DNA of 64,000 nt from a virus (IMGVR_UViG_3300022868_000014:32453-96452); one strand, 5' to 3'; counted from the first letter of the stretch, positions 2 through 28,127 are shown. Program-made: numbers and translations. The notes: generated by a model not told the origin, from the sequence alone.

Positions 2-1744
2 CGTAATGGGATCTATTCTCAGGCCATTAAAAAATGTGTTCGTTACTTCCTTAACGACATAGACCTGACAGGGGACGACCTAAGCCATGACACACGTAAG
101 AAATACCAAACCTTCCTAATGGAACAGATGAATATACTGGACCAGCTTGGGCAGGTAGGTGATGATGTAATCGCCTATGGTAACAGCTTCACATCAGTAT
201 CAGTACCGTTAAGGCGGTCCTTGGTATGTCCTAATAAAGATTGTGGACTATCCCGACCTCTTGAAACACTGAAGTTAGATGAAGACTACAAGTGGAAAGA
301 TTATAGCTTTGTAGGGGACTGTCCTCAGTGTAAAATGAAAGCACAAACCTTTAGACGCATTGATGCCAGCGGTGTCAGTAAGCATTCAAAAATTAAAATC
401 ATTAGATGGGCACCTCAGTATGTTTCTATTAAACATTGCTCTATCACTGGTGAATCCGATTACTACTATGAGATCCCGGCGGAAGAGAAAAGACGTATCA
501 AGGACGGTGACCCTGTGTTTATACGTTCTATGCCGTGGGAACTTATAGAGTCTGTTAAGAACGACAGGCCATTTAAGTTTAATAAGGAAACATTTTATCA
601 TCTAAAATGTAATACTGCAGCAAATCTTGTCCCTATGTTGAAGGGTTGGGGCTTACCTCTGTTTATGTCTAACTTCTCACAAGTTGTTCACCTCCAAATA
701 CTTGAGAGATTTAATGAGGCGATTGCGATGGATTACATCGTACCATTCAGAGTTCTGACTCCTCCGACAACTGGGGGCGCTTCAAAAACAGATCCTATGT
801 TATCTAATAACATGGGTAACTTTATGGGAGCTGTAAGACGTATGGTCAAACAGCATCGCCAGGACCCGACTTCTTGGCATACATTACCATTCCCTCTAGA
901 ATATCAGGCAATCGGTGGAGAAGCTAAATCACTGGTACCTGTTGAACTTATTGACAGAGCACAAGACGTACTGTTAACTAGTATGGGTGTTCCACAAGAG
1001 TTCTATCGTGGGTCTATCACTATGGGAGGCAGTGGTCCTCCAATCTCTCTTCGTATGTTCGAAAAGACTTGGACGCATTATACCACTATGCTTGACGACT
1101 GGTTAGGTTGGTTTCTAGTCCAGTGCGGTCGTATCATGGGATGGGAAGGTAACATTACCGGAAAACTTGAACGTACTAGTATTGTTGAAGACGAAATGGG
1201 TAAACAAGTTAAGCTTAATCTAGCTAGCGCTAAAGTCATCTCTAACCGTACAGCCCTTAAAGCATTCGGTATTGATATGGACCGTGAACGCGAACAGATC
1301 ATCGAAGAAGACCGTATTATGAACGAGTTAATGCGCGAAGAACAGAAGAAGGATGAACAGACTATGATGCTCACGGAGCAGATGGCTACTATTCCTCCAG
1401 ACGCAGCAGCTCAGAATATGGGTATGCCTCCGGGCGCAGAAGGTGGAGCACCACCTGCAGGCGGACCAGTAGGCGCAGCACCTATGCCTCCAGCAGGAGC
1501 AGCTCCTATGGGCGGTGGTACACCTTCTATGGATGATATGATGGCACAAGCTGAGCAGACAGCTCAGCAGATTATGTCTATGGACCCAACAACTAGACGT
1601 AATGAGCTCACTAATCTCAAGAAGAGCAATCCTACATTACACGCTCAAGTTAAGCAAATGATATCAGACATGGAGCAGGGTGTTAAATCAAACGCCCTAG
1701 CCCAAGCTAAGCAACAAGCGTCACAAGGCGGCGGTGCTATGTAA
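2..1744 (+). CDS. portal protein (5'-truncated by window edge)
   Basis: The frame is open from base 2 (RNGIYSQAIKK...), upstream of the tracked Met at 119. Portal-like segments (YHLK..GWGLPLF, LLTSMGVPQEF, ISNRTALKAFGIDMDRE), position at the start of the head module, Pro/Met-rich tail. Confidence 0.65.
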   Translation, partial: RNGIYSQAIKKCVRYFLNDIDLTGDDLSHDTRKKYQTFLMEQMNILDQLGQVGDDVIAYGNSFTSVSVPLRRSLVCPNKDCGLSRPLETLKLDEDYKWKDYSFVGDCPQCKMKAQTFRRIDASGVSKHSKIKIIRWAPQYVSIKHCSITGESDYYYEIPAEEKRRIKDGDPVFIRSMPWELIESVKNDRPFKFNKETFYHLKCNTAANLVPMLKGWGLPLFMSNFSQVVHLQILERFNEAIAMDYIVPFRVLTPPTTGGASKTDPMLSNNMGNFMGAVRRMVKQHRQDPTSWHTLPFPLEYQAIGGEAKSLVPVELIDRAQDVLLTSMGVPQEFYRGSITMGGSGPPISLRMFEKTWTHYTTMLDDWLGWFLVQCGRIMGWEGNITGKLERTSIVEDEMGKQVKLNLASAKVISNRTALKAFGIDMDREREQIIEEDRIMNELMREEQKKDEQTMMLTEQMATIPPDAAAQNMGMPPGAEGGAPPAGGPVGAAPMPPAGAAPMGGGTPSMDDMMAQAEQTAQQIMSMDPTTRRNELTNLKKSNPTLHAQVKQMISDMEQGVKSNALAQAKQQASQGGGAM

Positions 1745-4141: not shown

Positions 4142-5226
4142 TAAAGAAACAAGCCGAGTCCACATCAGAGATGACTCCCGGTACACTCGCGAATCTCGCA
4201 CTGAATCCGTGGGCATCAGTACTGCCGGGTTCTAAATACTTTATACCCGAGTTTATTGAGAATATGAAGGCTAAGTATAGGGATAACCCTCCAATACCCT
4301 TTACAGGTAATGCATCTTTTGATAAGAATCTGTTTCATGGTATGGCAACAGGTGGTACAGCTATGGCTCTAGCAGCATTGGCTCGGTACATCATGCATAC
4401 ATCGCAGGATAAAGAGCTAGACAAAACACTTAGAACAGACTCACGTGAGGCGACCGTAGGCGCTACTAATCCTATATTCTCACCAGACCCCTACTTAGAT
4501 GATTTAGCAGAAGAGCAGGCCCAGCAGGGCATAGGCATCGATAAGTCTGCGGAAGAAGCTGTCAAAGAAGAACCCAAGCCTGATACAGGCGGCGTCGATA
4601 TCAGCCCATGGCTCAAAGCTATAGTTCCTTTATCCATGATGATAGGCGGCGGTATGATAGGATATCAAGGTGTTGATAAAATATTAGAGCGTAATCGTAA
4701 AAGTGAACTAGACACTGACATTGATGAGCTTAGTAATAAATTAGATAAGGCCAACTATACTAAATTAATGAGAGCACGGGGCCTAGATCCAGATGAGCTA
4801 CCACCTCCTGTACCACCTGGACAAGAGATGAGCGCAGACGGGCAGGTATCTCCTATACCTAAACAAGCCCTTGAGGATTCAGCTAAAAATGCAATTAAAT
4901 CTATGGCAGCATTAGTTATGCTAAGTGTTGCAGCGAGTAGTGGTGTACTTACGAAACGATATTTCGACGGAGAAGATCCACAGAGAGCAGAGTACAGCGA
5001 AATGCAGCAGGCTCTTAAAGAGTTAAAGATGAGAGAACAGCGTAAAACTCCTATATCAATAGCTCCAATAGCACCAGCGCTCGAACAGAACCTTAACAAA
5101 CACCTGGGTAGCCCACAATCAGCAGTAAGCCATAGTTTACCGTCCAAAATCGAAGAGACCCCTGTAGACATGCCTGTCTCAGGTCTCAACAAAGATAAGT
5201 CGGACAGAACAATGGCATTACTATGA
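4138..5226 (+). CDS. putative internal virion protein
   Basis: IKKQA, IDKSA and IPKQA motifs, each followed by a hydrophobic helix. Confidence 0.55.
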   Translation: MIKKQAESTSEMTPGTLANLALNPWASVLPGSKYFIPEFIENMKAKYRDNPPIPFTGNASFDKNLFHGMATGGTAMALAALARYIMHTSQDKELDKTLRTDSREATVGATNPIFSPDPYLDDLAEEQAQQGIGIDKSAEEAVKEEPKPDTGGVDISPWLKAIVPLSMMIGGGMIGYQGVDKILERNRKSELDTDIDELSNKLDKANYTKLMRARGLDPDELPPPVPPGQEMSADGQVSPIPKQALEDSAKNAIKSMAALVMLSVAASSGVLTKRYFDGEDPQRAEYSEMQQALKELKMREQRKTPISIAPIAPALEQNLNKHLGSPQSAVSHSLPSKIEETPVDMPVSGLNKDKSDRTMALL

Positions 5227-8200
5227 CCCAAACATTTTTATCGGAATTAAAGAAGCAACCTACGTACAGGTATGACATTTTAGATTTTGATGGCATAAGA
5301 AACGCCACAATGGATAATGTCAAAGCTGCTGTATCGCAACGTTTCCCTTTAGAGAATGATGATTATACTCTAGCTGTAGATGAAGTGGATTACGATGGCC
5401 CGGATAGTTATTCCCTAAAGGAGCAGAAAGAAGCAATCCTAAAAGGTAGAAGCCTAGGTCGTAGACTTAAGGGTAGATGGACACTTACCGATAAACTCAC
5501 AGGCAAACCAGTAAGCCAGACTAAGAAAGTTACTTTACTTAATGTTCCTTATATTACTCCACGTGGTACTTATATCCGTAATGGCCATGAGATGACTATT
5601 GGACACGTGCTGCGCCTAAACCCGGGTGTTTACTCGCGGGTAAAGGCTAATGGATTATATGAGGCCCATGTTAATGTAGAACAAGGTACAGGTTCCCAGT
5701 TTAAGATGGAGATCGACCCAGAGACTGGTGTATTTAATATTCGTAAGGGTAATGTCAATGCAAGGCTTTATCCTATTCTCAGATCCATGGGTATCCCTGA
5801 TAAGAAAATAGAGGAGATGTGGGGCACTGAATTGCTCAATACCAACAGGCTGGCAAGTTCCGGAACTATGGTAACACGTAATCTTCAAAAGCTACTACCC
5901 AAGGAAGCCTCTGACGGCACGAAAGCCAATTACGTGACTCTGAGTCCGGATGATGCTAAAGCGCTCTTAGAATCGTTTGGAACGATGCGACTAGACCCTG
6001 TATCCACAGAAGCCACTCTTGGCAAGCCTTATGACAGAGTATCACCTGATATGCTGTTAGGTACATCGGATAAACTATTAAGATTAGCTAAAGGCACATC
6101 AAAGGCAGATAATAGGGATAGCATGCAGTTTCAGAAAGTATATGGACCTGCTGAGATTTTTGCAGAACGTATTGTCAAAGATGGTGGCCGACTAGGCCGT
6201 GCCCTCTTATGGAAGGCTACAAACAAAAAGAACCTGGACTTTATGTCATCTGGTGCACTTAATGCACATGTTGACGGAGTCTTTAATGAATCAAAATTAG
6301 CACAGTACATTGACGGGTCAAGCCCTTTTGATGCTATTGACTCAGCTACACGTATTACACGTCTAGGCGAGGGAGGCTTGAGCAGCCAACGTTTAGCATC
6401 TGATGAGATGAGATTGGTACAGAACTCCTTTAAAGGATACATAGACCCGATCAGATCACCAGAGTCTCTCGCCGTGGGACTACAAATGTTCATGACACAG
6501 AATACACGTAAAGGACATGATGGCCTACTATATACACAGTTATTCAACCCACGCACAGGTAAGAAAGAATGGGTAGACTCTAAGACAGCAGCAACAGCCA
6601 ATATAGCTACTTCGGAGTACATGGATACTAAAGACCCTTATATCCCTCTAGTGGGTGGAGAGCGTGGTGTACATATAGCACCCCGTAAAGATGTGGACTA
6701 CTATCTTAGTGATGATAATAACATGTTCTCATTGGGTTCTAACATGGTACCATTCAAGGGCGGTGTTAAAGGTATGAGATTATTGATGGGGTGCCTGGCT
6801 CCTGATACTAATATTATAATTAAAAAAGCTGATAATAGTATATTTTATGGTCATATAGAGAATTACGAATGGCACCAAGGAGACCAAGCGCACTCAGTTG
6901 ATCAGACTACTGGAAAGACAACCTGGAGAGGGGTTGAGCGATTGGTGCCTAATTATAATAAAATAGATATGTTAGAAGTTAAATTAAAAAGTGGTAGAAA
7001 ACTAACTACAACTGTTAATCATAAATGGGTGACTATGAGTGAACAAGGAACTTTAGAAAAGATCACAGCTCAGAATCTAGTTATGGGTACACCCATCCCC
7101 AGAGAAGGTTGGTTAGACTTCCCCATGGAAGAAGGCATCACATCTGTGACCATAGGGAAGGGGGCCAAGCATAATAGTTTTTCGGGCTTTGAGATGGAGC
7201 TCACAGAGGGCGTGGGATACATGCTGGGTTTATATACTGCAGAGGGCTGGTTACAAGGAGATAGGGGCCATGGATATGGTACAACAAGCTGGGCAGTTGA
7301 TAGACCGGAATTGCAGAAGAGATTATGTGCTGTATTAGATGACTTGGATCTTAAGTATAAAATAAGACGCAATGGTGCCGACCCTCATAAGAAGGTAGTG
7401 GTCAATCACTCAGGGTTTGCACGTTGGTTACATGCTAATTTGGAAACGGGTTCTTACAAGAAGAAGGTTGCGGGACTGATCCTGCAGGCCCCCTTAGGGT
7501 GTAGGGAAGGTTTTATAGCTGGATTTTTTGACGGAGATGGTACTGTGATGGATAGAAGAGGCTACGCCAGGCTAATTACAGGTGTGAGAAGTTATGACCT
7601 TATAGAGGGTTTGTCGAACCTATTCAGCACACTACAGATTGATACAGTGGTTAGAGAAACCACAGCCCTCGATAAACCTATCTACTTACTCGAAGTAAGG
7701 TCCCAGCATTTACATAAAGTCCCGGTGCTTACTCATAACGAAAAAGCTAAGAGGATGTCTACGCTGAAACTGTGGTCCGGTAAAAAGAATATAGATTACA
7801 TACCTATGTATAAAGATCTTCATGCCAGCGTACTACAGCGATCTACCCGTAAGGAGCACTTTAGACATCGCGCATATGTTAATCAACATACGAAACAATC
7901 ATTACAAGAGCGCATATCCTCCGAGGAATGCATCTGGTTAGATAGTGAGATAAGGTGGGATAGCGTGGTTGGTATAAAGGACGTAGACCCTGTAGCCATT
8001 ACATATGATCTGGATCTCAATGACCACACATTCTCAGTAGGTCAAGGTATATTTGTACATAATAGTAAATACGCTACACAGGCTTTACCCTTAGTTAATA
8101 GAGAAGCAGCACTAACACGTAGCGCAGATGGTACAGGTACCGGTTCTGTAGAAAGATTAGCAGGTAAATACACAGGAGCGGTCCAGGCACCTAAAGCAGG

Positions 8201-11200
8201 TGTCGTAAAACAAGTACGTAAAGATAAAATAATCGTTGAATATATAGACGGGGAACAAGCAGAGCATGAGCTTTATGATAACTTCCCGGCCAACCAGAAG
8301 GGTTACCTAAGGAGCCATGCTGAAGTTAAAGCTGGTGATACGTTTAAGAAAGGTCAAGCACTAGCCTCAAGCAACTACACAGCTAATGATGGTGTGTTCG
8401 CGGGTGGTTTGAATCTTCGTACAGCTTTCATGAACTTTAAAGGCTCTAACTATGAGGATGCTATCGTAATATCAGAGGCAGCAGCTAAGAGATTAACATC
8501 CGAGTATATGTACAATACAAAGCTACCTAAAGAAAAACATCTATCCACAGATACCAAACGATATGTTAACATGTTCCCGGGCAAGTATACGGCAGATCAA
8601 TTTGATAAGATGGATCCTAACGGTATGATTAAAACGGGTTCAGTTGTTGACAAAGGTGATCCACTTATACTAGGTATCAGAGAGAACCAGCCATCCCCCG
8701 GTACCGCGGGTCGTCGTACATTTACAGATGTCTCCGAGAAGTGGGAACATGATTACCCGGGAGTTATAACAGATGTAGTTACAGGTCGCGAGAATCACAC
8801 AGTCTTCTCCAGAGCCAATGTACCTATGAAGGTAGGCGATAAGATGTGTTACTCTGAGGATACAGATCTGCTAACCTCAAAGGGGTGGAAGAATATTACG
8901 ACTGTAACACTGGCTGATGAATTGGCCACCCTAGATCCTGATACAAAAAACATACAATACATCAACCCTTCAGCATTGCATAGCTACGACCACTCTGGTA
9001 GTATGCATGTAGTAGAAACAACACAGGTCAGCCTGTGTGTTACTGAGGAGCATAAACATTATGCAGCCCTTAGAAAGGGTAAAGAAGCAAGGTGGGAATA
9101 TGGTCTTCATAAGGCCTCTGATTTATATGGTAAAAAGTACAGGCTGGAAAAAACGGGTAAGTGGAAAGGCATACACCAGGATACGTTCAAATTACCACCC
9201 GTTGTTATGGGTGTAGGTAGAACCATGAAACTTGTTGAGGGGCCTGAGGTTTCGATAGAGGCTTATCTGACTATAATGGGCATCTACCTATCCGACGGCA
9301 ATTCAGTGTGGCAGCCTAGTAGTGGTTCTTATGGTTTTGATATAAGCCAAACAAAAGGTAATAATAAATATATACTGCAAAAGGCCTTTACCAGATTAGG
9401 TGTGAAGTGGTGTGAAGGGTCTCATTCTGAAAAAATAAGAGTGTATAGTAAGCACTGGGCTTCTTATCTCAAACAATTTGGAAAAGCACCCGAAAAGTAC
9501 ATACCTGATAACATACTGACCCTGTCACCTGATCTTTTGGCCATTTTTTATGAGTGGTTCATGTTCGGCGACGGGCACAGAACCCAAGCAGGACACGGAA
9601 TAACTACAGTCTCCAGCCGTCTCGCAGGGGATTGGCAAAGATTATGTCTTCATATGGGAATGTCCGCCACTGTAAGACTTACAGATAAAGGTGGACCACG
9701 CATTATATGCGGACGAAATTGTTTTGCTAAACCATCCTACACGGTAAGCACATACCGATATAAAAACCAACCCACGATCAACCACGGGCATGCCAAGACA
9801 CAGAAGGGTCAGACGGAATACTGGGATGAAAACTATTCAGGAAAGGTCTATTGCCCTGAGATGCCTTTTAATCACATAGTCTATACGAGACGTAATGGTA
9901 AAACAGTGTGGTCCGGTAATTCAAATAGATATGGTTCAAAGGGAGTAGTAGCAGAGGTTGTACCTGATAACCAAATGCCTTTAGATAAGAAGGGTAAACC
10001 ATTCGAAATATTAATGAGTCCTCTAAGCGTCGTTTCCCGTACTAATCCGGCCCAGTTAATTGAAGTTGCCTATGGTAAGATAGCCCAGAAAAGAGGTAAA
10101 GCCATAGATCTACCGGCCTTTATGACTGAAGATGCGGCGGAGAAGGCGATGGCTGATCTAAAAGAAAACGGACTATCAGATACAGATGATCTGCTTGATC
10201 CTGAAACTGGTAAGACTATTCCTAAGGTATTTAACGGGATGGCTTACTATTATAAATTAAAACATACAGCTGAATCTAAAGAGTCAGGCCGTGGTACAGC
10301 TGGATATACAATGGATAACGTCCCAGCGTCAGGTGGCTATGAAGGTAGCAAACGGCTTGGTGGCTTAGAAACCTCAGCTTTAATAGGTCACTCTGTTATG
10401 GAAGTCCTTAAAGATGCTAAGATAGTTAAAGGGCAGGCCAACGATGAGTTCTGGCGTGCATTTAAATTTGGTAAGACTCCTACTATGCCTGGTACACCTT
10501 TAGTACATAGCAAGTTCTTTGAACACCTAAAGGGTGCTGGTATTAATGTACGTAAAGGCAAAAGCAGTATTGATATCTTCGGTATGAACAATGATGATGT
10601 AGGCCGTCTCAGCCAGGGTCGACAGGTTAAGTCAGCTGATACATTTGAGACTAACACATACAGACCAATTGATGGTGGCTTGTTCGGTAAAGATGTATTT
10701 GGACCGGACGGTAACCAGTGGGGTTATATCCCATTAGATGAACCTATCCCTAATCCTGTAATGGCTGATAGCTTACGCAGATCCTTAGATATGACATTAA
10801 AAGATTTCGAAGCAGTAGCAGAGGGCCGTAAAGAGTTGAATGGTGATACAGGGGGTAACGCATTAAAGAAAGCCCTAGGTAAGATCGACCTTACCAGAGA
10901 GGTCAAGTATGCCATGGAAGATATAAAGCGTAGCACGGGTACGCGTAGGGACAATGCGATTAAGAAGTATAGAGCATTAGCCAGCATCAAACTGCAGAAG
11001 ATGCACCCTAAAGACTTCATGCTTGATAGAATACCAGTCCTACCACCTAAGTACAGACCTATTACATCTGTAGATGGTATGACAATGGTTGCTGATGCTA
11101 ACTACCTCTATAAAGCACTGATAGATGCTAACAAAGATTTTAAAGACGCCAGAGAACAACTACCTGATGATATGCTGGGAGATGCTAGAGCTCAGATCTA

Positions 11201-11960
11201 TAGAGGCTTTAAAGCAATAACAGGATTACACGACCCAGATGGAATTAAGCTACAGCAGAAGAATGTAGGTGGATTACTTAAGTGGGTATTCGGTAAGAGT
11301 TCCCCTAAGTATGGTGCCTTCCAACGCCGTGTTGTAGGATCTGCTGTTGACATGGTGGGCAGAGGAACAGTCACACCTAACCCAGCATTAAAGCTTAATC
11401 AGATCGGACTCCCAGAGGAACAGGCTTGGAACATCTATGAACCATTTGTTGTTAAAGCACTCATACAGGGTGGATATAAAGCAACAGACGCAGTTAAGAT
11501 GACAGCTGAGAAACACCCAGCGGCTTATTCTCTACTACAAAAGGCAGTTGAGGAACGTCCTGTAATTCTGAACAGAGCACCTTCACTCCATAAGTTTAGC
11601 TTAATGGGTTTCTGGCCAGTACTGACAAAGGGTAGCACTATACAGGTTAGTCCTAGTATTGTAGGACCATTCAATATGGATTTTGATGGAGATGCAGCAA
11701 ACTTCCACGTACCTGTATCACGTAAGGCGGCACAAGAAGTTGCGAGCAAGATGATGCCCGAACAGAACCTTTTGGATATAAAAGACTTTAAAGCTCATTA
11801 TAAACCAATGAGGGAATATTTGCAGGGCCTTAACATAGCAACAAGACAAAAACCAGGTCCACCTGTTAAAGTTTTTAAGAGTAAGGCAGACGCCAAAGAA
11901 GCTTACAGGAAAGGCGAGATAGACGTAGATGATCCTATTCGTATAGTGGACAAAAGCTAA
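5223..11960 (+). CDS. rpoBC: phage multisubunit DNA-directed RNA polymerase, beta fused to N-terminal half of beta', with 2 inteins
   Basis: beta motifs: RLGEGGL, GYIDPIRSPES, RLLMG|SKYATQALPL, GSNYEDAIVISE, GDKM|SNRYGSKGVV, YYYKLKH, GSKRLGGLE. beta' motifs: GLFGKDVFGP, PVLPPKYRP, ILNRAPSLHK, catalytic NMDFDGD at 11673-11693. Confidence 0.95.
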   Translation: MTQTFLSELKKQPTYRYDILDFDGIRNATMDNVKAAVSQRFPLENDDYTLAVDEVDYDGPDSYSLKEQKEAILKGRSLGRRLKGRWTLTDKLTGKPVSQTKKVTLLNVPYITPRGTYIRNGHEMTIGHVLRLNPGVYSRVKANGLYEAHVNVEQGTGSQFKMEIDPETGVFNIRKGNVNARLYPILRSMGIPDKKIEEMWGTELLNTNRLASSGTMVTRNLQKLLPKEASDGTKANYVTLSPDDAKALLESFGTMRLDPVSTEATLGKPYDRVSPDMLLGTSDKLLRLAKGTSKADNRDSMQFQKVYGPAEIFAERIVKDGGRLGRALLWKATNKKNLDFMSSGALNAHVDGVFNESKLAQYIDGSSPFDAIDSATRITRLGEGGLSSQRLASDEMRLVQNSFKGYIDPIRSPESLAVGLQMFMTQNTRKGHDGLLYTQLFNPRTGKKEWVDSKTAATANIATSEYMDTKDPYIPLVGGERGVHIAPRKDVDYYLSDDNNMFSLGSNMVPFKGGVKGMRLLMGCLAPDTNIIIKKADNSIFYGHIENYEWHQGDQAHSVDQTTGKTTWRGVERLVPNYNKIDMLEVKLKSGRKLTTTVNHKWVTMSEQGTLEKITAQNLVMGTPIPREGWLDFPMEEGITSVTIGKGAKHNSFSGFEMELTEGVGYMLGLYTAEGWLQGDRGHGYGTTSWAVDRPELQKRLCAVLDDLDLKYKIRRNGADPHKKVVVNHSGFARWLHANLETGSYKKKVAGLILQAPLGCREGFIAGFFDGDGTVMDRRGYARLITGVRSYDLIEGLSNLFSTLQIDTVVRETTALDKPIYLLEVRSQHLHKVPVLTHNEKAKRMSTLKLWSGKKNIDYIPMYKDLHASVLQRSTRKEHFRHRAYVNQHTKQSLQERISSEECIWLDSEIRWDSVVGIKDVDPVAITYDLDLNDHTFSVGQGIFVHNSKYATQALPLVNREAALTRSADGTGTGSVERLAGKYTGAVQAPKAGVVKQVRKDKIIVEYIDGEQAEHELYDNFPANQKGYLRSHAEVKAGDTFKKGQALASSNYTANDGVFAGGLNLRTAFMNFKGSNYEDAIVISEAAAKRLTSEYMYNTKLPKEKHLSTDTKRYVNMFPGKYTADQFDKMDPNGMIKTGSVVDKGDPLILGIRENQPSPGTAGRRTFTDVSEKWEHDYPGVITDVVTGRENHTVFSRANVPMKVGDKMCYSEDTDLLTSKGWKNITTVTLADELATLDPDTKNIQYINPSALHSYDHSGSMHVVETTQVSLCVTEEHKHYAALRKGKEARWEYGLHKASDLYGKKYRLEKTGKWKGIHQDTFKLPPVVMGVGRTMKLVEGPEVSIEAYLTIMGIYLSDGNSVWQPSSGSYGFDISQTKGNNKYILQKAFTRLGVKWCEGSHSEKIRVYSKHWASYLKQFGKAPEKYIPDNILTLSPDLLAIFYEWFMFGDGHRTQAGHGITTVSSRLAGDWQRLCLHMGMSATVRLTDKGGPRIICGRNCFAKPSYTVSTYRYKNQPTINHGHAKTQKGQTEYWDENYSGKVYCPEMPFNHIVYTRRNGKTVWSGNSNRYGSKGVVAEVVPDNQMPLDKKGKPFEILMSPLSVVSRTNPAQLIEVAYGKIAQKRGKAIDLPAFMTEDAAEKAMADLKENGLSDTDDLLDPETGKTIPKVFNGMAYYYKLKHTAESKESGRGTAGYTMDNVPASGGYEGSKRLGGLETSALIGHSVMEVLKDAKIVKGQANDEFWRAFKFGKTPTMPGTPLVHSKFFEHLKGAGINVRKGKSSIDIFGMNNDDVGRLSQGRQVKSADTFETNTYRPIDGGLFGKDVFGPDGNQWGYIPLDEPIPNPVMADSLRRSLDMTLKDFEAVAEGRKELNGDTGGNALKKALGKIDLTREVKYAMEDIKRSTGTRRDNAIKKYRALASIKLQKMHPKDFMLDRIPVLPPKYRPITSVDGMTMVADANYLYKALIDANKDFKDAREQLPDDMLGDARAQIYRGFKAITGLHDPDGIKLQQKNVGGLLKWVFGKSSPKYGAFQRRVVGSAVDMVGRGTVTPNPALKLNQIGLPEEQAWNIYEPFVVKALIQGGYKATDAVKMTAEKHPAAYSLLQKAVEERPVILNRAPSLHKFSLMGFWPVLTKGSTIQVSPSIVGPFNMDFDGDAANFHVPVSRKAAQEVASKMMPEQNLLDIKDFKAHYKPMREYLQGLNIATRQKPGPPVKVFKSKADAKEAYRKGEIDVDDPIRIVDKS
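6792..8063 (+). mobile_element. intein 1 (424 aa, LAGLIDADG endonuclease) in RNAP beta
   Basis: Starts CLAPDT, block B TVNHKW, LGLYTAEG and IAGFFDGDG motifs, ends FVHN|S. Removal restores RLLMG-SKYATQA. Confidence 0.92.
8847..9920 (+). mobile_element. intein 2 (358 aa, LAGLIDADG endonuclease) in RNAP beta
   Basis: Starts CYSEDT, TEEHKH, MGIYLSDG and FMFGDG motifs, ends WSGN|S. Removal restores GDKM-SNRYGSKG. Confidence 0.9.
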
Positions 11961-11975
11961 ATACCCACGTATATT
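11947..11975 (+). promoter_or_regulatory. sigma70-like promoter
   Basis: TGGACA-N17-TATATT upstream of ORF 12036. Confidence 0.5.
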
Positions 11976-11993
11976 TAAGGATGTATCTAAAAA

Positions 11994-12009
11994 GTCTAAC
12001 GCGTTAGAC
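11994..12009. promoter_or_regulatory. 16-bp perfect palindrome GTCTAACGCGTTAGAC, copy 1
   Basis: Intergenic, between the promoter and the RBS; identical copies at 32368 and 44045. Confidence 0.7.
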
Positions 12010-12035
12010 ATTTCAAATATAAACAGGAGAATACA

Positions 12036-12773
12036 ATGATTGATAGAAAACTGCTTAAAGGAGCGCGAGAAAGCCTCAAAAAAGAAGCCTTCGTACCCCT
12101 CACACCAGAAGCACAAGCGGCAGCAGCCGGCGGAGCACCTCCAATGGACCCAGCTATGATGGGCGGAGCACCTCCAATGGACCCAGCTATGATGGGTGGA
12201 GCACCTCCAATGCCACCAATGGACCCAGCAGCTATGGGCGGAGCCCCTCCAATGGATCCAGCTATGATGGGCGGAATGCCTCCAATAGACCCAGCAACAG
12301 GAATGCCAATAGACCCAGCAACAGGAATGCCGATGGACCCAGCTATGCTGGGCGGAGCACCTCCAATGCCCCCGGAAGAAGAAGGTGACGATGTCGTTAA
12401 AGTAAGTATGGATGATCTTAAAGCACTGATGGAAGAAGTAGCAGGCGCCAAAGCAGGCGACGCTGAAAAACCACGTCGTGCAACCAATGCAGAGATCATG
12501 GACAAATTAACAGAGTTGGAAACGTCACTTTCGGCCCTCGTGGGCGGAGAACCGACTCCAGCTGATACAGGTATGATGCCTCCTGAATTAGAGGGCGCAC
12601 CAATGCCTCCAGGATCCCCTGAAGAAATCTCAGCATTACTACAGAGCACAGGAATGGGAATGCCCCCAGAAGGAGCAGCTCCACCTATGCCTCCAGGAAT
12701 GCCTGTACAAGCAGCAGCCAAGTCTAACACTATTGCTAGCCTAGTTAGCTCTTTAAAGGAGAAACAGAGATGA
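12036..12773 (+). CDS. Pro/Met-rich low-complexity head-associated protein
   Basis: ACAGGAG RBS; LKKEA motif; GGAPPMDPAMM repeats. Confidence 0.65.
   Translation: MIDRKLLKGARESLKKEAFVPLTPEAQAAAAGGAPPMDPAMMGGAPPMDPAMMGGAPPMPPMDPAAMGGAPPMDPAMMGGMPPIDPATGMPIDPATGMPMDPAMLGGAPPMPPEEEGDDVVKVSMDDLKALMEEVAGAKAGDAEKPRRATNAEIMDKLTELETSLSALVGGEPTPADTGMMPPELEGAPMPPGSPEEISALLQSTGMGMPPEGAAPPMPPGMPVQAAAKSNTIASLVSSLKEKQR
12129..12370 (+). repeat. imperfect ~33-nt coding tandem repeats (GGAPPMDPAMM)
   Basis: ggcggagcacctccaatggacccagctatgatg and variants recur about 5 times, plus 21-nt IDPATGM repeats. Confidence 0.85.
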
Positions 12774-13567
12774 GCCAGAAACTTAGAGATGAATTACATA
12801 AACTAGCCAATATACAAGTGACCAAGCTACAGAAAGAAGCAGCTGAAGGGGACGCCCCAGCACCAGTAGGTGCTGCTCCTGTAACACGTGAGCTTAGCAA
12901 GGGTGAGATTATTAAGTTTATGCTTCTCTATGGTGGCGGAGGTGCAGCACTCGGCGCAGGTCTAGGCGCTGTAACAGGTGGTATGGATAATGTCGGCGCG
13001 ATAGCAGGCGGCGGCATCGCAGGCCTAGCAGGCGGATCTTTACTTGGAGTAATGGCTTTGAACGCTCGTAGAATCAGAGAACACTCTGCAGCGCGCGAAC
13101 AAGGAGCAGGGACAGAGCTTATGAATAGAAGCTGGAACTTAGGGGAAGGTGGTTTACTAGAAAGCACTCCAAGTGCGGCAGCATTAGGAGCCGGAACAGG
13201 CGTAGCTGCCCAAATGTTAAGTAGTGGATCTTTAAACAAGGTGCCCGGGGCTGTAACCAAGATACCTGGGGCCTTAAAAAAGGTACCTAAACTCTTCAAG
13301 ATGCCTAACTTTAAAAAATTCAAGATGCCTAGTTTCTCTAAACCCAATCTTAAACCTGGTAATCTACAAATGGGTGCTAACGCCGGTAAGTACGTGAAAG
13401 GTGGCAGTAAAGGTAGCATTAATGGTGCTAGTATCTATAAAAACCTCCAGGGAGGAGCGAAGAAGGCCGCTTTGTTTGCACTAATGGGTATAGGTGCACA
13501 AATCGGCATCAATGAGTACAGAGGCCAGGCAAGGCATAAACGTCTTTCAAAACTACCCCCTGAATAA
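12770..13567 (+). CDS. putative internal virion protein with glycine-zipper helices
   Basis: LHKLA and LQKEA motifs; GAALGAGLGAVTGG segments; ATGA overlap. Confidence 0.55.
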   Translation: MSQKLRDELHKLANIQVTKLQKEAAEGDAPAPVGAAPVTRELSKGEIIKFMLLYGGGGAALGAGLGAVTGGMDNVGAIAGGGIAGLAGGSLLGVMALNARRIREHSAAREQGAGTELMNRSWNLGEGGLLESTPSAAALGAGTGVAAQMLSSGSLNKVPGAVTKIPGALKKVPKLFKMPNFKKFKMPSFSKPNLKPGNLQMGANAGKYVKGGSKGSINGASIYKNLQGGAKKAALFALMGIGAQIGINEYRGQARHKRLSKLPPE

Positions 13568-13569
13568 AC

Positions 13570-16548
13570 ATGATCACGACAGTAGGCAAAGAACTAGTTA
13601 AAGATGCTTTACCTGCTGCTTATCGTTCTTATGCCGAAGAGGCTATAGATGGTAAGCGGATCGGTGATCTTATGACTGATCTTGCTAAGAAAGATCCAGG
13701 TAAGTATAACGACACCCTCCAAAAACTTAATAACATAGGTCGTAATGTAGCAACTACATATGGCCGTGAAGCTAGTATTAGTCTCAAAGATTTAACAGTC
13801 CCTGCCTCCATCAGGAATAAGAAGCAAGAACTCAAGCAAAGAATACACCTTATAACAAATAGCACAGGCCTTACATCTGAGCAGAAGCTTGATGAGATTA
13901 CGAAGGTAACCAATAAAGCCTCCAAGAACTTATCCGAAACAGTATATAGGGATCTCTTGGCCCGTAACAACTCTATGGCCAGACAAATAGAAAGTGGCTC
14001 CAGAGGGAATAAGACACAGCTTATGCAGACTGTCTTCGGTGATATGCTTATGGCAGATTCTACAGGCAAGACAATACCATTCCCAGGACTGGACTCCTAT
14101 GGTAGTGGTGTATCTCCTTTACCTTATTGGCTTGGTGCTCAATCCTCCAGAAAGGGCATGTGCCTCGCAGGAAGCACATTGGTTAGAATGGCTGATTTCT
14201 CCGTTAAAGCTATAAAAGACATAACCAAAGGTGAGAGGGTAATAGGAGCCGATACTGAAGGAAATACTTTTCCGGTAGAGGTTATCGACACTTTTGATAA
14301 TGGGGAACGAAAAGTTAATGATTACACGTTCAGGGTAGGAAGGATGGATAATCTTGTAACACTAACAGCTACAGAAAACCATAAAGTCCTCTCTGTCATT
14401 AAGAATGGACAGGCAACACCTCATCTAAGAATCCCTTCTAAGCTACCTCTCAGCCAGGCATGGCGTTGTTTTGGCATGACACCGGCCGGCACCTATCAAT
14501 GTAAGGCAGAAACCTCACAGCCGTATGCTCGTTTATTGGGCTTATTATTAGGCGATGGACATTTAAGCGAGAAATATAGTGTTACGTTATCTTCAATAGA
14601 TGTTGATCTAATAGAGAAGCTTAACAAGGATCTAAACAATGTTCAGCTTAAACATATAAAGAGGAATAGAACGTCCGGAGAGCCCTCCTTAGAGTACGTA
14701 GTAATTGGAAAAGGGATTAGAGACCAAGCAAAACACAGAAACCCTATAAAAAGATGGCTTGATACCTTTGGATTACTGGGCACACATTCCCATACTAAGT
14801 TTATACCAGAGGAGAGTAAGAGATGGTCAAATGCTGATATAGCTAATTTGATACATGGGTTATATGAGTCGGACGGTTGGTGCCGCAAAGGTAGTAATAC
14901 ATCTAACTTACCAGGTGTAGGCTGGTCGATGTCTTCAGAAATATTATTGAACCAACTAAAAGAACTGTTACAAACCAGGTTTGGCATCTACACAACAACT
15001 GTAAGCCCTGTTAAACTTTCAAAGACCAGATCCTTTAATAAGAGTGGAAAAGAGATAATACACAGACTTGATATGTACACCCTTAGAGTAACTAATGAGT
15101 CTTCTATTTATAAATTTAATAAACTACTGGCGTATGGAAGAAAATCAGATGAATTTAGAGAACTACTTAGTAAGCATACCCCTAATAACAGGGACGATAG
15201 TCTTGTTTTCGGGTATACAGGTAAATCAGACTCCTATAAAATAAATACGTATGATTTATCAGTGAACCACCCTGATCATCTATTTGTACTAGCTAATGGA
15301 ATGGTAGTATCTAACTCCGATACACAATTCAGTACAGCTGAGTCAGGCTATTTAAGCAAACAATTAACAAACGTAGCCCATCGTAATATAGTAACTATGC
15401 CCGACTGCGGAGTTACACAAGGCCTTAAAGTAGAAGGTGACGACTCTGACAATGTAGGCAGTATACTACTGCAGCCTGTCGGTACCCTTAAAGCCGGTAC
15501 AATTATACAAGCAGAACACTTACCCCTTATGACCGACAAGAAAGTAACAGTACGTAGCCCTTTAACATGTGAAGCACCAGAAGGCGTATGCCAACAGTGC
15601 ACAGGTGTAAGAGAGAAAGGTACCTTACCTGATATAGGCGAGGCTGTGGGCATCAATGCTGTACGTTCCTTTGTAGAGGCACTAACACAATCCGGTCTTG
15701 GTTCGAAGCACATAGGCGGAGTAGGCGGTAAAGACGAAGAGGAAGTAGGTCTAACAGGTTTCAAAGAAGTAAATCAATTTGTACAAGTCCCTAAAGAGTT
15801 TGTAGGTGGTGCAATATTATCAGAAGCTGATGGTAAGGTGGCAAAGATACAAGACGCCCCTCAGGGTGGTAAATACATCATGGTCAGCGGTAAGCAGTAT
15901 CATATTCCACGAGAACTCCACACAGCAGTAAAGATAGGCGATAATGTAGAAGCAGGTGATGTCCTTAGCAACGGAGTACCCAACCCTTCAGAGATTGTAA
16001 AGTATAAAGGTATAGGCAGTGGCAGACGTTACTTCATGGAACAGTATCATAAAATATTAAAGAAGAATGGAGCAGGTACTAACAGGCGCAATCTGGAACT
16101 CTTTGCCCGTAGTTTCATATCCAAAATTAAGATAAATGATCCCGAGGGTTACAATGGCCATATGGTAGGTGACGTTGTGGATTATGATTATTTAGCATCC
16201 AGATGGCAACCTAGAGAGGGTTCTAAGTTGAAATCAGTCACAAGTGCAAGTAATTTATATCTAGAGAAACCCTATTTACATTATAGTATAGGGACACGAA
16301 TTACGCCGAAGGTATCTAAGGAACTGAGGAGTAACGGAGTAGGACTGGTTGCAACGCATCCTAAACCACCTCCCTTTGAACCGTTTGTCGTTCGTGCTCA
16401 GGATTTTACACAACATGATAAGGATTGGATGACTCGCTTAGGCGGAGAAAATCTCAAACGTTCAACATTAGGGGCCGCTGCACGCGGGGGCACTAGCGAA
16501 CGTAAGAGTACATCATACTACCCAGCAATAACAAATATTGGAGATTAA
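13570..16548 (+). CDS. rpoC: RNA polymerase beta' C-terminal subunit, with intein
   Basis: TTVGK start, ESGSRGN, bridge helix RKGM|SDTQFSTAESGYLSKQL, Zn site DCG...RSPLTC..GVCQQC, trigger loop GEAVGINA...KHIGG. Confidence 0.92.
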   Translation: MITTVGKELVKDALPAAYRSYAEEAIDGKRIGDLMTDLAKKDPGKYNDTLQKLNNIGRNVATTYGREASISLKDLTVPASIRNKKQELKQRIHLITNSTGLTSEQKLDEITKVTNKASKNLSETVYRDLLARNNSMARQIESGSRGNKTQLMQTVFGDMLMADSTGKTIPFPGLDSYGSGVSPLPYWLGAQSSRKGMCLAGSTLVRMADFSVKAIKDITKGERVIGADTEGNTFPVEVIDTFDNGERKVNDYTFRVGRMDNLVTLTATENHKVLSVIKNGQATPHLRIPSKLPLSQAWRCFGMTPAGTYQCKAETSQPYARLLGLLLGDGHLSEKYSVTLSSIDVDLIEKLNKDLNNVQLKHIKRNRTSGEPSLEYVVIGKGIRDQAKHRNPIKRWLDTFGLLGTHSHTKFIPEESKRWSNADIANLIHGLYESDGWCRKGSNTSNLPGVGWSMSSEILLNQLKELLQTRFGIYTTTVSPVKLSKTRSFNKSGKEIIHRLDMYTLRVTNESSIYKFNKLLAYGRKSDEFRELLSKHTPNNRDDSLVFGYTGKSDSYKINTYDLSVNHPDHLFVLANGMVVSNSDTQFSTAESGYLSKQLTNVAHRNIVTMPDCGVTQGLKVEGDDSDNVGSILLQPVGTLKAGTIIQAEHLPLMTDKKVTVRSPLTCEAPEGVCQQCTGVREKGTLPDIGEAVGINAVRSFVEALTQSGLGSKHIGGVGGKDEEEVGLTGFKEVNQFVQVPKEFVGGAILSEADGKVAKIQDAPQGGKYIMVSGKQYHIPRELHTAVKIGDNVEAGDVLSNGVPNPSEIVKYKGIGSGRRYFMEQYHKILKKNGAGTNRRNLELFARSFISKIKINDPEGYNGHMVGDVVDYDYLASRWQPREGSKLKSVTSASNLYLEKPYLHYSIGTRITPKVSKELRSNGVGLVATHPKPPPFEPFVVRAQDFTQHDKDWMTRLGGENLKRSTLGAAARGGTSERKSTSYYPAITNIGD
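14161..15315 (+). mobile_element. intein 3 (385 aa, LAGLIDADG endonuclease) in beta' bridge helix
   Basis: Starts CLAGST, TENHKV, LGLLLGDG and IHGLYESDG motifs, ends VVSN|S. Confidence 0.9.
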
Positions 16549-16921: not shown

Positions 16922-18988
16922 ATGGCAGGTTCAAATTTCGAAGTTCAACTAGGGCAGCTGGCCGACTCGCAAATTGCGCAGGACGCCCCAGCATTAACCC
17001 CTTATAAGGTCGGCTTTCAGCTCATCGATAAAGATGATGATGAGACTCGAGGAGTCGGTGTATCAGTATTCCAATTGAATGATCAATGGATTTACATCCC
17101 AATCTTTTATCTCAATGGACGGATCAAAGGACTCGATCTCATGTTCTTACCGAACAGAGGACAGTTTGTTCCAACCAAAGAAACTTGGATCTCATATCTC
17201 AAAGGACAGCAACCGCTGGAATTAGGAGAATCAGGAGAACAGGAAGAAGAAGAAAGCGCTAAGACAATGCAGGGTAAACCTGGTTCAGTCAATCTCACAG
17301 AAACTGATCCTTTCCTTAAAGGTGCAGCACTCTTAGAGAAGGACGCGTGGGAGAACATGCAGACACCTGTTAAATTCGACCGAGACGTATTTGACCTGAA
17401 AGAATGGGTACCTAGGCTGGGTAAAGAAGCATCTTTCCAGTTTACAGCCACCATGATTAAACACCCTGAATTCGCTAACGCAATTCTCAAGTATTATTCT
17501 GCGGATGATTTACGCGGATTAGCTAAGACAGCTGACGAAGTAGGAGTAGATGAGTTGGACATACCTGCCGCCGACGGATCTTCTCAAGGTCAGACTGTAC
17601 TTAAAGTAATCACACCTGATTCCCCAGACGCATCTGAATTAGAAGATGCAGAGAAAGAAGTGTTAATGCGTGACCGGGTCTTCTTTGTAGACAACCGTAA
17701 GGAAACATCCACTGTATTTAAAGGTGAAGTAGATCATACGAAACTAAGCACTCCTACGTGCACAGGTCTCTATGATGTTCTTATGGCTGATGGTACATTT
17801 GATCGTTTCTATGTTTTGTTTCCAAACAAGATGGAAAATAAACCGGACAACAGTGTACTGAATACACGTGATGCTAAATTCTTATTGGTTCCTTTGAACC
17901 ATAAAGATAAGTATCTCGCAGGCAAAGGATGTATCCAAGCTAAGCAGCTAACTATCACCAATGATGAAGATACAACTCTTCTTAAATCACTTGGTAGGGA
18001 TCTCAAACGTATCATCAGAGAACGCTCCAATGATGCAGTGATTGTAGACCCTTATGCTAATAGCTACCAGGTTTACTTCAATGGACCTAAGACAGCCTAT
18101 GGCAATAAGATTAAAATCAGCCTAGGACTTGGAACAGCAGCTTGTATGGATCTTGGTCGTAAAGTAGATTGCATGCAGTTCACTGATAAACCTGGTAAAC
18201 TCTTCATTGGTGCGGATACATTATATGTTCCTAACAATGCTAAAGTTATTGACAGAGCAGATTACAAACTTAATCAGAAGTATGGTTTCGGTAATCCTAA
18301 TACTCTAGTTAACAGCCTGATCAATAAGGTACAGCTCACTCCTGTTAAAGTATACAGCGATGGAGCATCTATTACACTTAGTAATGCTGACGTATCTGAC
18401 GGCCCTATCAATAAGACAGCAGCCATGATTAAGTTAGTTAGAGATTACGGTATCGCAGCACCTACTGCTAAGAAAATGGTTAAGGAAGCAGCTTCTCAAC
18501 ATAGACCAAACTCTATGCGGTATCTTGTTAAACTGGCCAAAGACCCGTTCATCAATACAGCTGAGAACTCTATAGGAGCAGCAGCTGCACCTAATGATGT
18601 AGAAGAAGTAACAGCCCCTCAAGATGGGCTTGATGATATAGACACAGCAGTTAAGGCATCCGAGAACGGTGTCAAAGAAGTTATGGACGTATCCGTACTC
18701 CGTACATTGGCAATGAACAGTAAAGCAATCGACATGGTTGAGGATTACCTCCCTGACCTACTTCGTGGTCTCGACCGCGTAGGTAGACTGTTGTTCCTGT
18801 TCTACTGGCACAATGATGACTTCCAGGACCGTTATGGTACTGATGAGCTGACTGAGTTAGAAGAAAGCCTTCGTGATGTATTCCAGTCCTTAAGTGACTT
18901 GGTATTGTTCCTCAGTAAAAAGACTGTGGCACCTGATACATCCACCGAAGCCTTAGCAGGAGATCTTTCAGAAGATCTAGGTGCATGA
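16922..18988 (+). CDS. large head-module protein of unknown function
   Basis: 688-aa ORF with RBS; LGKEA, LAKTA, INKTA, MVKEA and LVKLA motifs. Confidence 0.6.
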   Translation: MAGSNFEVQLGQLADSQIAQDAPALTPYKVGFQLIDKDDDETRGVGVSVFQLNDQWIYIPIFYLNGRIKGLDLMFLPNRGQFVPTKETWISYLKGQQPLELGESGEQEEEESAKTMQGKPGSVNLTETDPFLKGAALLEKDAWENMQTPVKFDRDVFDLKEWVPRLGKEASFQFTATMIKHPEFANAILKYYSADDLRGLAKTADEVGVDELDIPAADGSSQGQTVLKVITPDSPDASELEDAEKEVLMRDRVFFVDNRKETSTVFKGEVDHTKLSTPTCTGLYDVLMADGTFDRFYVLFPNKMENKPDNSVLNTRDAKFLLVPLNHKDKYLAGKGCIQAKQLTITNDEDTTLLKSLGRDLKRIIRERSNDAVIVDPYANSYQVYFNGPKTAYGNKIKISLGLGTAACMDLGRKVDCMQFTDKPGKLFIGADTLYVPNNAKVIDRADYKLNQKYGFGNPNTLVNSLINKVQLTPVKVYSDGASITLSNADVSDGPINKTAAMIKLVRDYGIAAPTAKKMVKEAASQHRPNSMRYLVKLAKDPFINTAENSIGAAAAPNDVEEVTAPQDGLDDIDTAVKASENGVKEVMDVSVLRTLAMNSKAIDMVEDYLPDLLRGLDRVGRLLFLFYWHNDDFQDRYGTDELTELEESLRDVFQSLSDLVLFLSKKTVAPDTSTEALAGDLSEDLGA

Positions 18989-26289: not shown

Positions 26290-27249
26290 ATGAGAATGGA
26301 TCCCGATGTTCGTTTGCTGAACGAAACCATTGTTAATGGACTTACCTCCACTGACGATGTGTTGCGCAAGCAAGCTAAAGAAGGTGTTGATGATTGGCTT
26401 CGTATTAAGATGCGTGAAGATGGCTTCGCCCGTAGGATTCTTCCTCCGGTCCCAGTTACACCCGCAGACCTTGATCGCCAGGTCGACACACCGAAACCTG
26501 TTATTGTAAAGGACCAGGAACCTAATTCCGCTGGAGCATATACTGTTCCCTTCGGAACTACTCCTATGGACCATTACATCATGGGCCCAAGATACCGCGT
26601 CATGTTTGACCGTATCCTGAGTCGTAGATATAACAGCGATGTTAACAACCTCTTAACTTATGACATGGACATCCGTCAGATCCTTAATGACTTTCTTTTG
26701 AAAGACATTATGGCTGAAGAAGACAGAAAGTTCATGGCTGTAGTTGACTCTATCGTAGGCGTAGCCAACACTGTTGACGCGACTCTCGAAAGTTGTCAGA
26801 ATATTACAGTAGGTCCGTTGACTCGTCAATCGTTGGCACATTCCCGTAAGGGCCTGCCATCAACCAACCGTCACTTGAATGCATCAGTTGCACTCGTGAA
26901 TAACATCACTATTTGGGATGTTGTTGCATTAGGCAGAGATGACATTGGTGGTGACCTTGCTGAAGAACTACTGGTTAACGGTTTCGCCGAACGCCAGATC
27001 ATGGGACTCAAATGGGCCATTACTATCAAGACTGACTTGGTAAGCGATGACGAATTGTACATGTTCGCAGAGCCTAAGTACACTGGGGACTTCTTTGTTC
27101 TCGATGACGTTACGATCAGTACTAAGCATGAGGATTATTTTATCGAGTTCTTTGCGTATGAGTGCATAGGAGCTACTATCCAGAATACGGCTAGTTGTGC
27201 CAAAGTTTCCTTCGTGGGAAGTCAGGTCGATTGGCGGACTGGGGTGTAA
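26290..27249 (+). CDS. major capsid protein (probable HK97 fold)
   Basis: 319 aa; follows protease, scaffold and decoration genes; ACAGGAG RBS; followed by a strong terminator; REDGFARRILPP motif and spine-helix-like KDIMAEEDRKF. Confidence 0.75.
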   Translation: MRMDPDVRLLNETIVNGLTSTDDVLRKQAKEGVDDWLRIKMREDGFARRILPPVPVTPADLDRQVDTPKPVIVKDQEPNSAGAYTVPFGTTPMDHYIMGPRYRVMFDRILSRRYNSDVNNLLTYDMDIRQILNDFLLKDIMAEEDRKFMAVVDSIVGVANTVDATLESCQNITVGPLTRQSLAHSRKGLPSTNRHLNASVALVNNITIWDVVALGRDDIGGDLAEELLVNGFAERQIMGLKWAITIKTDLVSDDELYMFAEPKYTGDFFVLDDVTISTKHEDYFIEFFAYECIGATIQNTASCAKVSFVGSQVDWRTGV

Positions 27250-27362: not shown

Positions 27363-28127
27363 ATGGCGAAAAGAAATACATATAATGATAAGCAACAGCG
27401 CAGTAAGAAATATGGGCGGTTGCAGCCTCTTAAGAGCATACTTAAGGGTAAAAACATTTACTGGGAATGTGAGTGTGATTGTGGTCAGATGGTTACTAAA
27501 CGTAAAAACCATCTGATATCCGGAGCAACCACCAGCTGTGGGTGCTTCAATAAAGAAGCATTAATTAAAAGACATGGTGATGCTAATAAAGATTTCGTTG
27601 GAACAGTATTTGGTAGACTAACAGTATTAGAGAGGGCTGAGAATGCCCCTGATGATGCAACGAGATGGCACTGTCGTTGTGTGTGTGGGGAAAAAACTGT
27701 TGTTCTAAAGAACAGTTTGTTGAGGGGTAATACGAGATCGTGTGGGTGTCTGTCTGTTGAGAAGTCCTCAGAACGCATTAAAAAACTTATTGCTAATTAT
27801 AAGGGGGCGAAGCATCCCAGGTGGAACCCCGCCCTAACGGACGAAGACCGTACAGCACGTAGGCACATCCCAGGCTATAAGGAGTTCGTAAAAGAAGCAA
27901 TGGTCAGGGATGATTACACATGCCAGGTATGCACCAAGCATGGAGGTGATCTAGCAGTCCACCACCTGAACTCTTACTCTCAGCACCCGGAGGAGCGCAC
28001 AGAGCTCTCTAATGGTACCACCCTATGCGCAGGATGCCATTCGGCCTTTCATGCGCTCCATGGCTACGCGGAGGCCTCTAAAGAGGACTTCCAGGGATGG
28101 ATCAAAACTAACGCCATTTGTAAATAA
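27363..28127 (+). CDS. HNH homing endonuclease
   Basis: Two WxCxCxCG...SCGC repeats and a C-terminal RDDYTCQVC...VHH...NGTTLCAGCH HNH domain. Confidence 0.85.
   Translation: MAKRNTYNDKQQRSKKYGRLQPLKSILKGKNIYWECECDCGQMVTKRKNHLISGATTSCGCFNKEALIKRHGDANKDFVGTVFGRLTVLERAENAPDDATRWHCRCVCGEKTVVLKNSLLRGNTRSCGCLSVEKSSERIKKLIANYKGAKHPRWNPALTDEDRTARRHIPGYKEFVKEAMVRDDYTCQVCTKHGGDLAVHHLNSYSQHPEERTELSNGTTLCAGCHSAFHALHGYAEASKEDFQGWIKTNAICK

Follow-up and report, generated by a model that had tools for sequence, protein, structure and literature searches.

A phage RNA polymerase with beta fused to the N-terminal part of beta', laden with inteins and belonging to a large, apparently undescribed family

Multisubunit RNA polymerases (RNAPs) have been thought to need a dimer of the alpha subunit to assemble beta with beta', and the phiKZ-type phages showed that alpha is dispensable. 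In the rpoB-rpoC fusions of Helicobacter and Wolbachia, as in tethered Escherichia coli beta-beta', the C-terminus of beta is joined to the N-terminus of beta' in a working chain; in the Helicobacter-type fusions beta' is complete, and alpha and omega are retained. The present study characterised the RNAP genes of a stretch of viral DNA of 64,000 nucleotides (IMGVR_UViG_3300022868_000014:32453-96452, hereafter the window, with positions counted from its first letter), in which one gene encodes an undivided beta joined in frame to the N-terminal part of beta' (beta'-N) and a separate gene encodes the rest of beta' (beta'-C). The linear IMG/VR virus record from which the window comes measures 96,452 bp and has a CheckV completeness of 52%, so that the full genome of the phage is probably ~185 kb. 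An earlier note on this DNA had presented the architecture as unusual. The layout proved to be family-wide and is found, unremarked, in the deposited genomes of four cultured phages, namely Salmonella phage Arash and Vibrio phages D69, D148 and D181, which lowers the novelty of this single instance. The window's RNAP, laden with inteins, belongs to a large family of phage enzymes of the multisubunit kind that appears to be undescribed.

Partition of the catalytic core and its conservation

The beta portion of the fused open reading frame (ORF; coordinates of all features in Table 1) was recognised by the Pfam models Rpb2_6 (E 5.5e-41, above the cut-off) and Rpb2_3, and the beta'-N portion, comprising clamp and barrel, by Rpb1_1 and Rpb1_2 (E 3.9e-26). 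This bears out the observation in the earlier note that the C-terminal strand of beta, HLKGAGINV (aa 1768-1776, nt 10524-10550), runs in frame into beta'. With the inteins set aside, beta is compact, continuous over aa 1-1776 and not split. Beyond the junction, SIDIFGM...GGLFG aligns residue for residue with E. coli beta' residues ~18-60, the first ~17 residues of beta' being gone. The tail of the fused chain matched bacterial beta' 166-541 (E 4e-45) and cyanobacterial gamma 188-552 among the sequences of the PDB. An AlphaFold model of aa 1567-2245 had a mean predicted local distance difference test (pLDDT) score of 76 and folded the junction as a beta-hairpin (block pLDDT 76-92); the best Foldseek matches to the modelled piece were cyanobacterial gamma and plastid RpoC1 (template modelling score 0.57-0.61 on the target).

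All catalytic residues are kept. The three aspartates of the Mg-binding motif (D2153, D2155 and D2157) are invariant in the alignment with the Arash and D69 orthologues, and the lysine motif of beta (GDKxxxRxGxKG type) reads GDKM/SNRYGSKGV once restored across intein 2, the slash here and below marking a border. Met does replace the Ala of the canonical motif, as previously noticed, to give NMDFDGD. Among the representatives of the family this second position is A, M, L or G (e.g. GADFDGD in 21, NADFDGD in 19, GMDFDGD in 12 and NMDFDGD in 11); since it varies while the Asp triad is constant, the Met is no special feature of the window's phage. The chain ends 88 aa past the motif, close to the 90 aa estimated before.

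The remainder of beta' restarts at TTVGK two genes later, as the note had stated. The product of this second gene was matched by Rpb1_5 (E 1.6e-15) and, at 21.9 bits and thus below the 24.8-bit cut-off, by Rpb1_4; its aa 3-197 align with Streptomyces beta' 661-855 (PDB sequence match), and it retains the second Zn site (CGV...C...C..C). After removal of the inteins, the mature chains would comprise ~1463 aa (fused chain, precursor 2245 aa) and ~607 aa (beta'-C, precursor 992 aa).

The same partition recurs widely. A tblastn search of the window's chain against 50,697 phage records recovered the whole fused chain in a single gene in Arash (gp206, 1525 aa) and D69 (1527 aa), each with a separate beta'-C gene of 606-609 aa downstream and the portal gene just upstream. 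When the intein-free aa 1567-2245 served as query in a full HMMER scan over 1.84 billion representatives of 50%-identity clusters, 1885 matches at E <= 1e-30 were obtained, the best 150 all at E <= 1e-164. Beta with beta'-N, ending at most a few residues away from where the window's chain stops, was found in 135 of these 150 clusters, the others being fragments, and in none of the 150 did beta'-C lie in the same chain. The distance from the GxGI strand of beta to the GGLF motif of beta' was 41-45 residues in 77 of 79 relatives, and separate beta'-C proteins of relatives share the start M-x-TT(V/I)G. Given its near-fixed length, its conservation and the hairpin model, the junction is, on sequence and modelling grounds, a constrained structural element and neither a loose linker nor an assembly error. 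By the same comparisons, the division into beta plus beta'-N and beta'-C is conserved across a very large clade, numbering hundreds, of phages of ~180-215 kb.

The in-frame beta-beta' junction was also present in 22 related phage loci, of which 13 are split like the window and nine (six distinct) form a single ORF. In the latter (IMG/VR loci L009-L015, L018 and L019), beta, beta'-N and beta'-C lie within 2105-2507 aa, with the same junction and the same NMDFDGD as in the window. These uninterrupted chains align colinearly through the window's break (...PIRIVDKS / MITTVGKEL...) with 0 residues added or lost, so the break is a clean cut without loss of residues. A split intein joining beta'-N to beta'-C was rejected on the same comparison, there being no extra residues on either side of the break. 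In a tree of phage and cellular beta', an analysis that the earlier note had proposed, rooted here on bacterial and Rhizobium-phage sequences, the fused clade with its split and single-chain members was well supported (98), and its three sub-lineages formed an open fork. A tree grouping all single-chain rows was not rejected (approximately unbiased test, p 0.61), so that one switch between the split and single-chain states suffices, in either direction.

No description of a beta-beta'-N fusion in phages was found in the literature, in which subscription journals were thinly covered; two jumbo-phage reviews (one of them PMC7598289) and the comparative study of Iyer et al. make no mention of such a fusion.

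A phage-owned, alpha-free enzyme and its alternatives

Profiles for alpha (PF01000) and omega (PF01192) found no match in the whole 96-kb record, in line with the earlier failure to recognise either gene in the window, nor in five complete or near-complete relatives; the same profiles were positive in 14 of 14 cellular genomes used as controls. Exactly one gene with the beta' barrel domain PF00623 occurs in the window's record and in each of the five relatives, four of which also have sigma-70 region 2 above the cut-off. In Arash, sigma factors are present and a second RNAP barrel gene was not found. The portal gene upstream and the major head protein gene downstream place the RNAP genes inside the head module, where they had been put before; the portal is also homologous to the D69 protein immediately upstream of the D69 RNAP genes. 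Proteomics of Arash particles assigned to gp206 the most spectra of any protein (3516), above the major capsid protein, and detected gp216 (1210 spectra) and the sigma factor gp10 (PMC10585845).

With fairly good confidence, we regard the window's genes as encoding the core of a phage-owned RNAP of the bacterial two-barrel type, with re-cut subunits, that would be made late, packaged, injected and active without alpha. Its inteins would splice out before either chain works, and the unspliced precursors should be inactive, since the insertions interrupt core active-site motifs. The mature chains would then assemble without alpha or omega. Expressed late together with the head genes, the enzyme would be packaged in the capsid, injected and put to transcribing the early genes, packaging and injection being steps that we infer from Arash and from gene position. 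As judged from the complete relatives, it would be the only RNAP of the phage and would be directed by phage-encoded sigma-70-type factors. More speculatively, because two barrels are brought together in one molecule, the covalent tether between beta and beta'-N might assume part of the role of the alpha dimer as assembly platform. A self-contained minimal machine that combines all of this, namely a core of one or two chains in which the tether replaces the platform of alpha2 and omega, served by its own sigma-70-type factors, packaged, injected and acting as the sole RNAP from the first transcript to the last, is conceivable, and we would put it forward only tentatively.

Several points weigh against this interpretation. 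For the window's phage, splicing, assembly, activity and packaging are predictions from sequence and from relatives. The N-terminal Zn ribbon of beta' is absent from the fused chain (...FGPDGNQWGYIPL...). As to the tether, phiKZ-type enzymes lack alpha and yet consist of more pieces, not fewer. No sigma-70 gene was found in the 96-kb record, and because this record is about half a genome, the statements on sigma factors and on a single RNAP rest on the relatives only; a very divergent second RNAP set could moreover escape the Pfam model. Particle proteomics within the clade come from Arash alone, whose chains are only ~31% identical to those of the window and whose authors allow that abundant enzymes could be carried over as contaminants of the particles (PMC10585845).

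These limits of the proteomics leave some room for an enzyme made as described but kept out of the virion in the window's lineage, expressed late or constitutively, with genes placed in the head region by chance, while host RNAP redirected by phage sigma factors reads the early genes. The sigma-70-type factors of the complete relatives could equally serve the host core, and consensus scans of the RNAP region for promoter-like and terminator-like elements gave no enrichment over shuffled sequences. We nonetheless consider such a non-virion role unlikely, as the fused chain of Arash tops the particle spectra, the order portal-RNAP-capsid is shared by the window and relatives only ~30% identical to it, and the proteins encoded between the RNAP genes look head-internal. 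Distinctly less probable is that the fusion is only a precursor, which the protease of head maturation or a different protease cuts at or near the beta/beta' junction, leaving ordinary separate beta, beta'-N and beta'-C pieces. Such a cut would fit the frequent processing of head proteins, virion RNAP subunits included, in large phages of the phiKZ type; the junction, however, is a ~5-residue turn of almost fixed length in the family, modelled as a tight beta-hairpin with no exposed linker, and beta-beta' fusions work uncut both in nature (Helicobacter rpoBC) and when engineered (tethered E. coli subunits).

The layout could, finally, reflect mis-assembly or a lost stop codon at the junction, or a decaying gene whose beta' was recently broken by inserted DNA. 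The window record is a single metagenomic contig, and mobile DNA does hit this gene, with three inteins here and a homing-endonuclease insertion in D181. Set against this, the junction and stop point are the same in 135 independent clusters and four cultured phages, the catalytic residues are all kept, the start of beta'-C is conserved and no split-intein residues occur at the break, so that we attach hardly any probability to this explanation. An assembly artefact, a possibility raised in the earlier note, is ruled out along with a pseudogene by the conserved junction and stop point, the junction recurring also in the 22 related loci.

Should the clade carry such a self-contained, packaged machine as its sole RNAP, it would add a third kind of virion RNAP to the single-subunit enzyme of N4 and the multi-piece enzymes of phiKZ, and would represent the simplest natural sigma-dependent core of the multisubunit type known, with two chains or one and about 2070 residues. 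To the problem of assembly without alpha, an environmentally common phage clade would offer a different and simpler answer, in which both catalytic barrels are tied into one chain and the cut in the linker is kept or dropped. Since the clade has cultured members (Arash on Salmonella, the D-phages on Vibrio), one of them with proteomics, questions on transcription, sigma use and injection are directly testable.

Inteins, intervening genes and neighbourhood

Table 1. Features of the RNAP region and the flanking head genes of the window (slashes mark intein borders).
Feature	Position	Strand	Description
Portal protein gene, start of head module	119..1744	+	PHROG 2739; homologous to Arash portal gp204
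Fused RNAP gene	5223..11960	+	Single uninterrupted ORF, 2245 codons; beta aa 1 to ~1776, beta'-N aa ~1782-2245
Intein 1	6792..8063	+	aa 524-947 of fused chain, 424 aa; CLAPDT...TVNH block B...VHN/S; LAGLIDADG domain
Intein 2	8847..9920	+	aa 1209-1566 of fused chain, 358 aa; CYSEDT...TEEH...SGN/S; absent from orthologues
Fusion junction	10524..10610	+	HLKGAGINV, ~5-aa turn RKGKS, first beta' strand SIDIFGM
Catalytic Mg-binding motif NMDFDGD, beta' barrel	11673..11693	+	aa 2151-2157
Intervening gene 1, Pro/Met/Gly/Ala-rich repeat protein, 245 aa	12036..12773	+	N-terminal ...LKKEAFVP motif
Intervening gene 2, Gly/Ala-rich protein with Lys-rich tail, 265 aa	12770..13567	+	
beta'-C gene	13570..16548	+	992 codons; starts MITTVGK; bridge helix, trigger-loop region, second Zn site
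Intein 3	14161..15315	+	aa 198-582 of beta'-C, 385 aa; CLAGST...TENH...VSN/S; LAGLIDADG
Major head protein gene	26290..27249	+	PHROG 2522, E 1.7e-9

The borders of the three inteins were placed by alignment with intein-free orthologues and by Pfam matches, and all three show the class 1 features, namely Cys1, a TxxH block B, a terminal Asn and a +1 Ser, together with precise absence from orthologues. Intein 1 lies in the beta motif LMG/S-x-x-TQALP, presumably the equivalent of the bacterial MG-ANMQRQAVP motif; it was matched by Intein_splicing and LAGLIDADG_3 and is exactly missing from the Arash and D69 orthologues. Intein 2 occupies the active-site motif of beta between GDKM and SNRYGSKGV. 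It shares 30% identity (E 2e-33) with a stretch of Prevotella megaphage Lak-A1 genomes, and the similarity suggests that inteins of this type may be exchanged among very different large phages. Intein 3, matched by Hint and LAGLIDADG_3, interrupts the bridge helix at RKGM/SDTQFSTAESGYL (RKGM/SDT..TAESGYL), a motif restored across the intein; related beta'-C proteins of 610-650 aa are without it.

The fused-and-split RNAP family is exceptionally intein-rich: one to five large insertions are present in 112 of the 150 fused-chain representatives (mini-inteins of ~150 aa, inteins and larger elements), with hot spots at ~420, ~530, ~600, ~780, ~820, ~930, ~1050-1080, ~1250 and ~1380 in extein coordinates. 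The family thus offers a natural collection of the sites at which inteins enter RNAP. By pattern, 27 of the 150 representatives, or ~45 by position (e.g. P0011, P0012, P0021, P0035 and P0058), have an intein-like insert of ~500 aa inside the catalytic motif itself, with the layout NADFDG-N-CCDFDS...(~500 aa)...IIW-D-TMxxHVP. With canonical borders (Cys1...Asp/Thr), splicing would leave NADFDGN, without the third Asp, and the Asp that closes the insert sits exactly at the position of that third Asp; we take the element for an atypical intein or for a HINT-like domain that is retained.

Other interruptions were observed in and around the family. In Vibrio phages D181 and D148 the fused gene, which their sister phage D69 has in intact form, is divided into ORFs of 514 and 1006 aa (L050:5500-6450 in D181) by an insert of ~950 bp with a free-standing homing endonuclease gene. 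The interruption appears to fall on the conserved beta position of the window's intein 1 or near it, and the insert could be an intron or make this a true gene-in-pieces. In another IMG/VR relative, a single in-frame stop (L016:9617-9619) leaves the fused gene as two same-frame ORFs, of 680 and 808 aa; the gene is intact in L020, an IMG/VR locus with the same gene coordinates as L016 and nearly equal BLAST scores. Within the window, a fourth intein was recognised in an 873-aa head-module protein (21469-24090, + strand), with matches to Intein_splicing, LAGLIDADG_3 and Vint at aa ~119-504.

Two genes separate the RNAP genes. The product of the first had no Pfam or PHROG match. A similar low-complexity protein rich in Gly, Ala, Pro and Met and with a KKAFVP start lies between the RNAP genes of loci L003-L008, L020 and L022, and the start ...L..KKAFVP(M)PGG is conserved among the inter-RNAP low-complexity proteins of the window's sub-clade. 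The first product is likely a head-internal or scaffold-like protein, and proteins with this start are possibly capsid-targeted internal proteins with a cleaved leader. The second product likewise had no Pfam or PHROG match, nor a homologue in the related loci; it has LQKEA/AEG about as far from its start as the KKAFVP-type motif. The beta'-C ATG follows 2 nt past the stop of this gene. The intervening 1.6 kb was considered as an intron and rejected, as it holds two ORFs, one of them of a protein type found between the RNAP genes of related split loci. The 75-nt spacer that follows the fused gene's stop contains a perfect palindrome of 16 nt, GTCTAACGCGTTAGAC (11994-12009), ahead of the AGGAG ribosome-binding site that serves intervening gene 1.

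Downstream of beta'-C, a helicase of the kind seen beside it in Arash (gp217) and in phiKZ-type neighbourhoods was sought and rejected: the next large gene of the window (16922-18988) had no Pfam or PHROG match and no similarity to gp217, and a Walker A motif was not seen by eye in its translation. An HNH homing-endonuclease gene (27363-28127, + strand; PHROG 374, E 6.5e-33) directly follows the major head protein gene.

Comparison with known systems

The RNAPs of Arash and of D69, D148 and D181 share the window's partition, their beta'-C starting at the TTxG equivalent and their genes lying downstream of the portal, and the Arash and D69 chains are colinear with those of the window over their full length at 31-32% identity. 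These isolates differ in lacking inteins and in the motif AADYDGD. Ten genes, mostly on the opposite strand, separate the two RNAP genes in Arash, compared with two in the window, and the Arash chains measure 1525 and 606 aa against the 1463 and 607 aa predicted here for the mature forms. The Arash paper and the records of these isolates call gp206 simply 'beta' or 'hypothetical' and leave the fusion unmentioned (PMC10585845). In the single-chain IMG/VR relatives, unlike in the window, beta'-C continues in frame and the whole core is one polypeptide.

Like the window, the phiKZ/AR9-type phages own a two-barrel enzyme without alpha or omega and with beta' cut after the catalytic barrel, and the window's chains have PHROG matches to the beta'-N, beta'-C and beta pieces of that type. 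In jumbo phages beta' is cut behind the barrel, at the same place as in cyanobacteria, and one of their sets is packaged in the virion (PMC7598289). The earlier note had held that phiKZ-type enzymes are split differently, which stands for beta, present there in two to three pieces and never fused to beta', but not for beta', whose break lies in the same post-barrel linker (PMC7598289, comparison with YerA41). The RNAP genes of YerA41 are ordered beta'N-beta'C-beta, and its beta' cut falls ~40-90 residues further downstream than in the window. Phages of this type have two paralogous RNAP sets and no sigma-70 homologue, whereas the complete relatives of the window have one set and sigma-70-type genes; with its beta undivided and fused, and a single barrel gene and sigma-70-type genes in its relatives, the window was not assigned to the phiKZ type.

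Phage RNAPs alignable with bacterial beta and beta', as in the window, also occur in the mReC phages and in Rhizobium phages such as RHph_Y65, and the PHROG families that fit the window's chains best (phrog_24349 and phrog_25354) comprise full-length proteins resembling beta and beta'. RHph_Y65, however, has an undivided beta' of 1127 aa. Separate beta and beta' of >= 800 aa, with NADxDGD, were the selection criteria for the mReC phages, which have T4-type gp23 capsids (Weinheimer and Aylward, 2020; PMC7481178). Membership of this group was rejected in view of the fused and split chains, the motif NMDFDGD and a major head protein with no match to PF07068 (gp23-type capsid).

Compared with the Helicobacter type, the window's chain stops after the barrel and lacks the first ~17 residues and the Zn ribbon of beta'; an entire beta' in the chain of beta, absent from the window, is present in the relatives L009-L015. 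Cyanobacterial and plastid RNAPs (gamma/RpoC1 with beta'/RpoC2) have their beta' cut in the same post-barrel linker, by alignment ~10-35 residues further downstream and after TTxGR, whereas their beta is separate and alpha and omega are present. The beta' cuts of the present phages, cyanobacteria, plastids and phiKZ-type phages thus share one permissive linker region, and what sets the present enzymes apart is an undivided beta fused to beta'-N.

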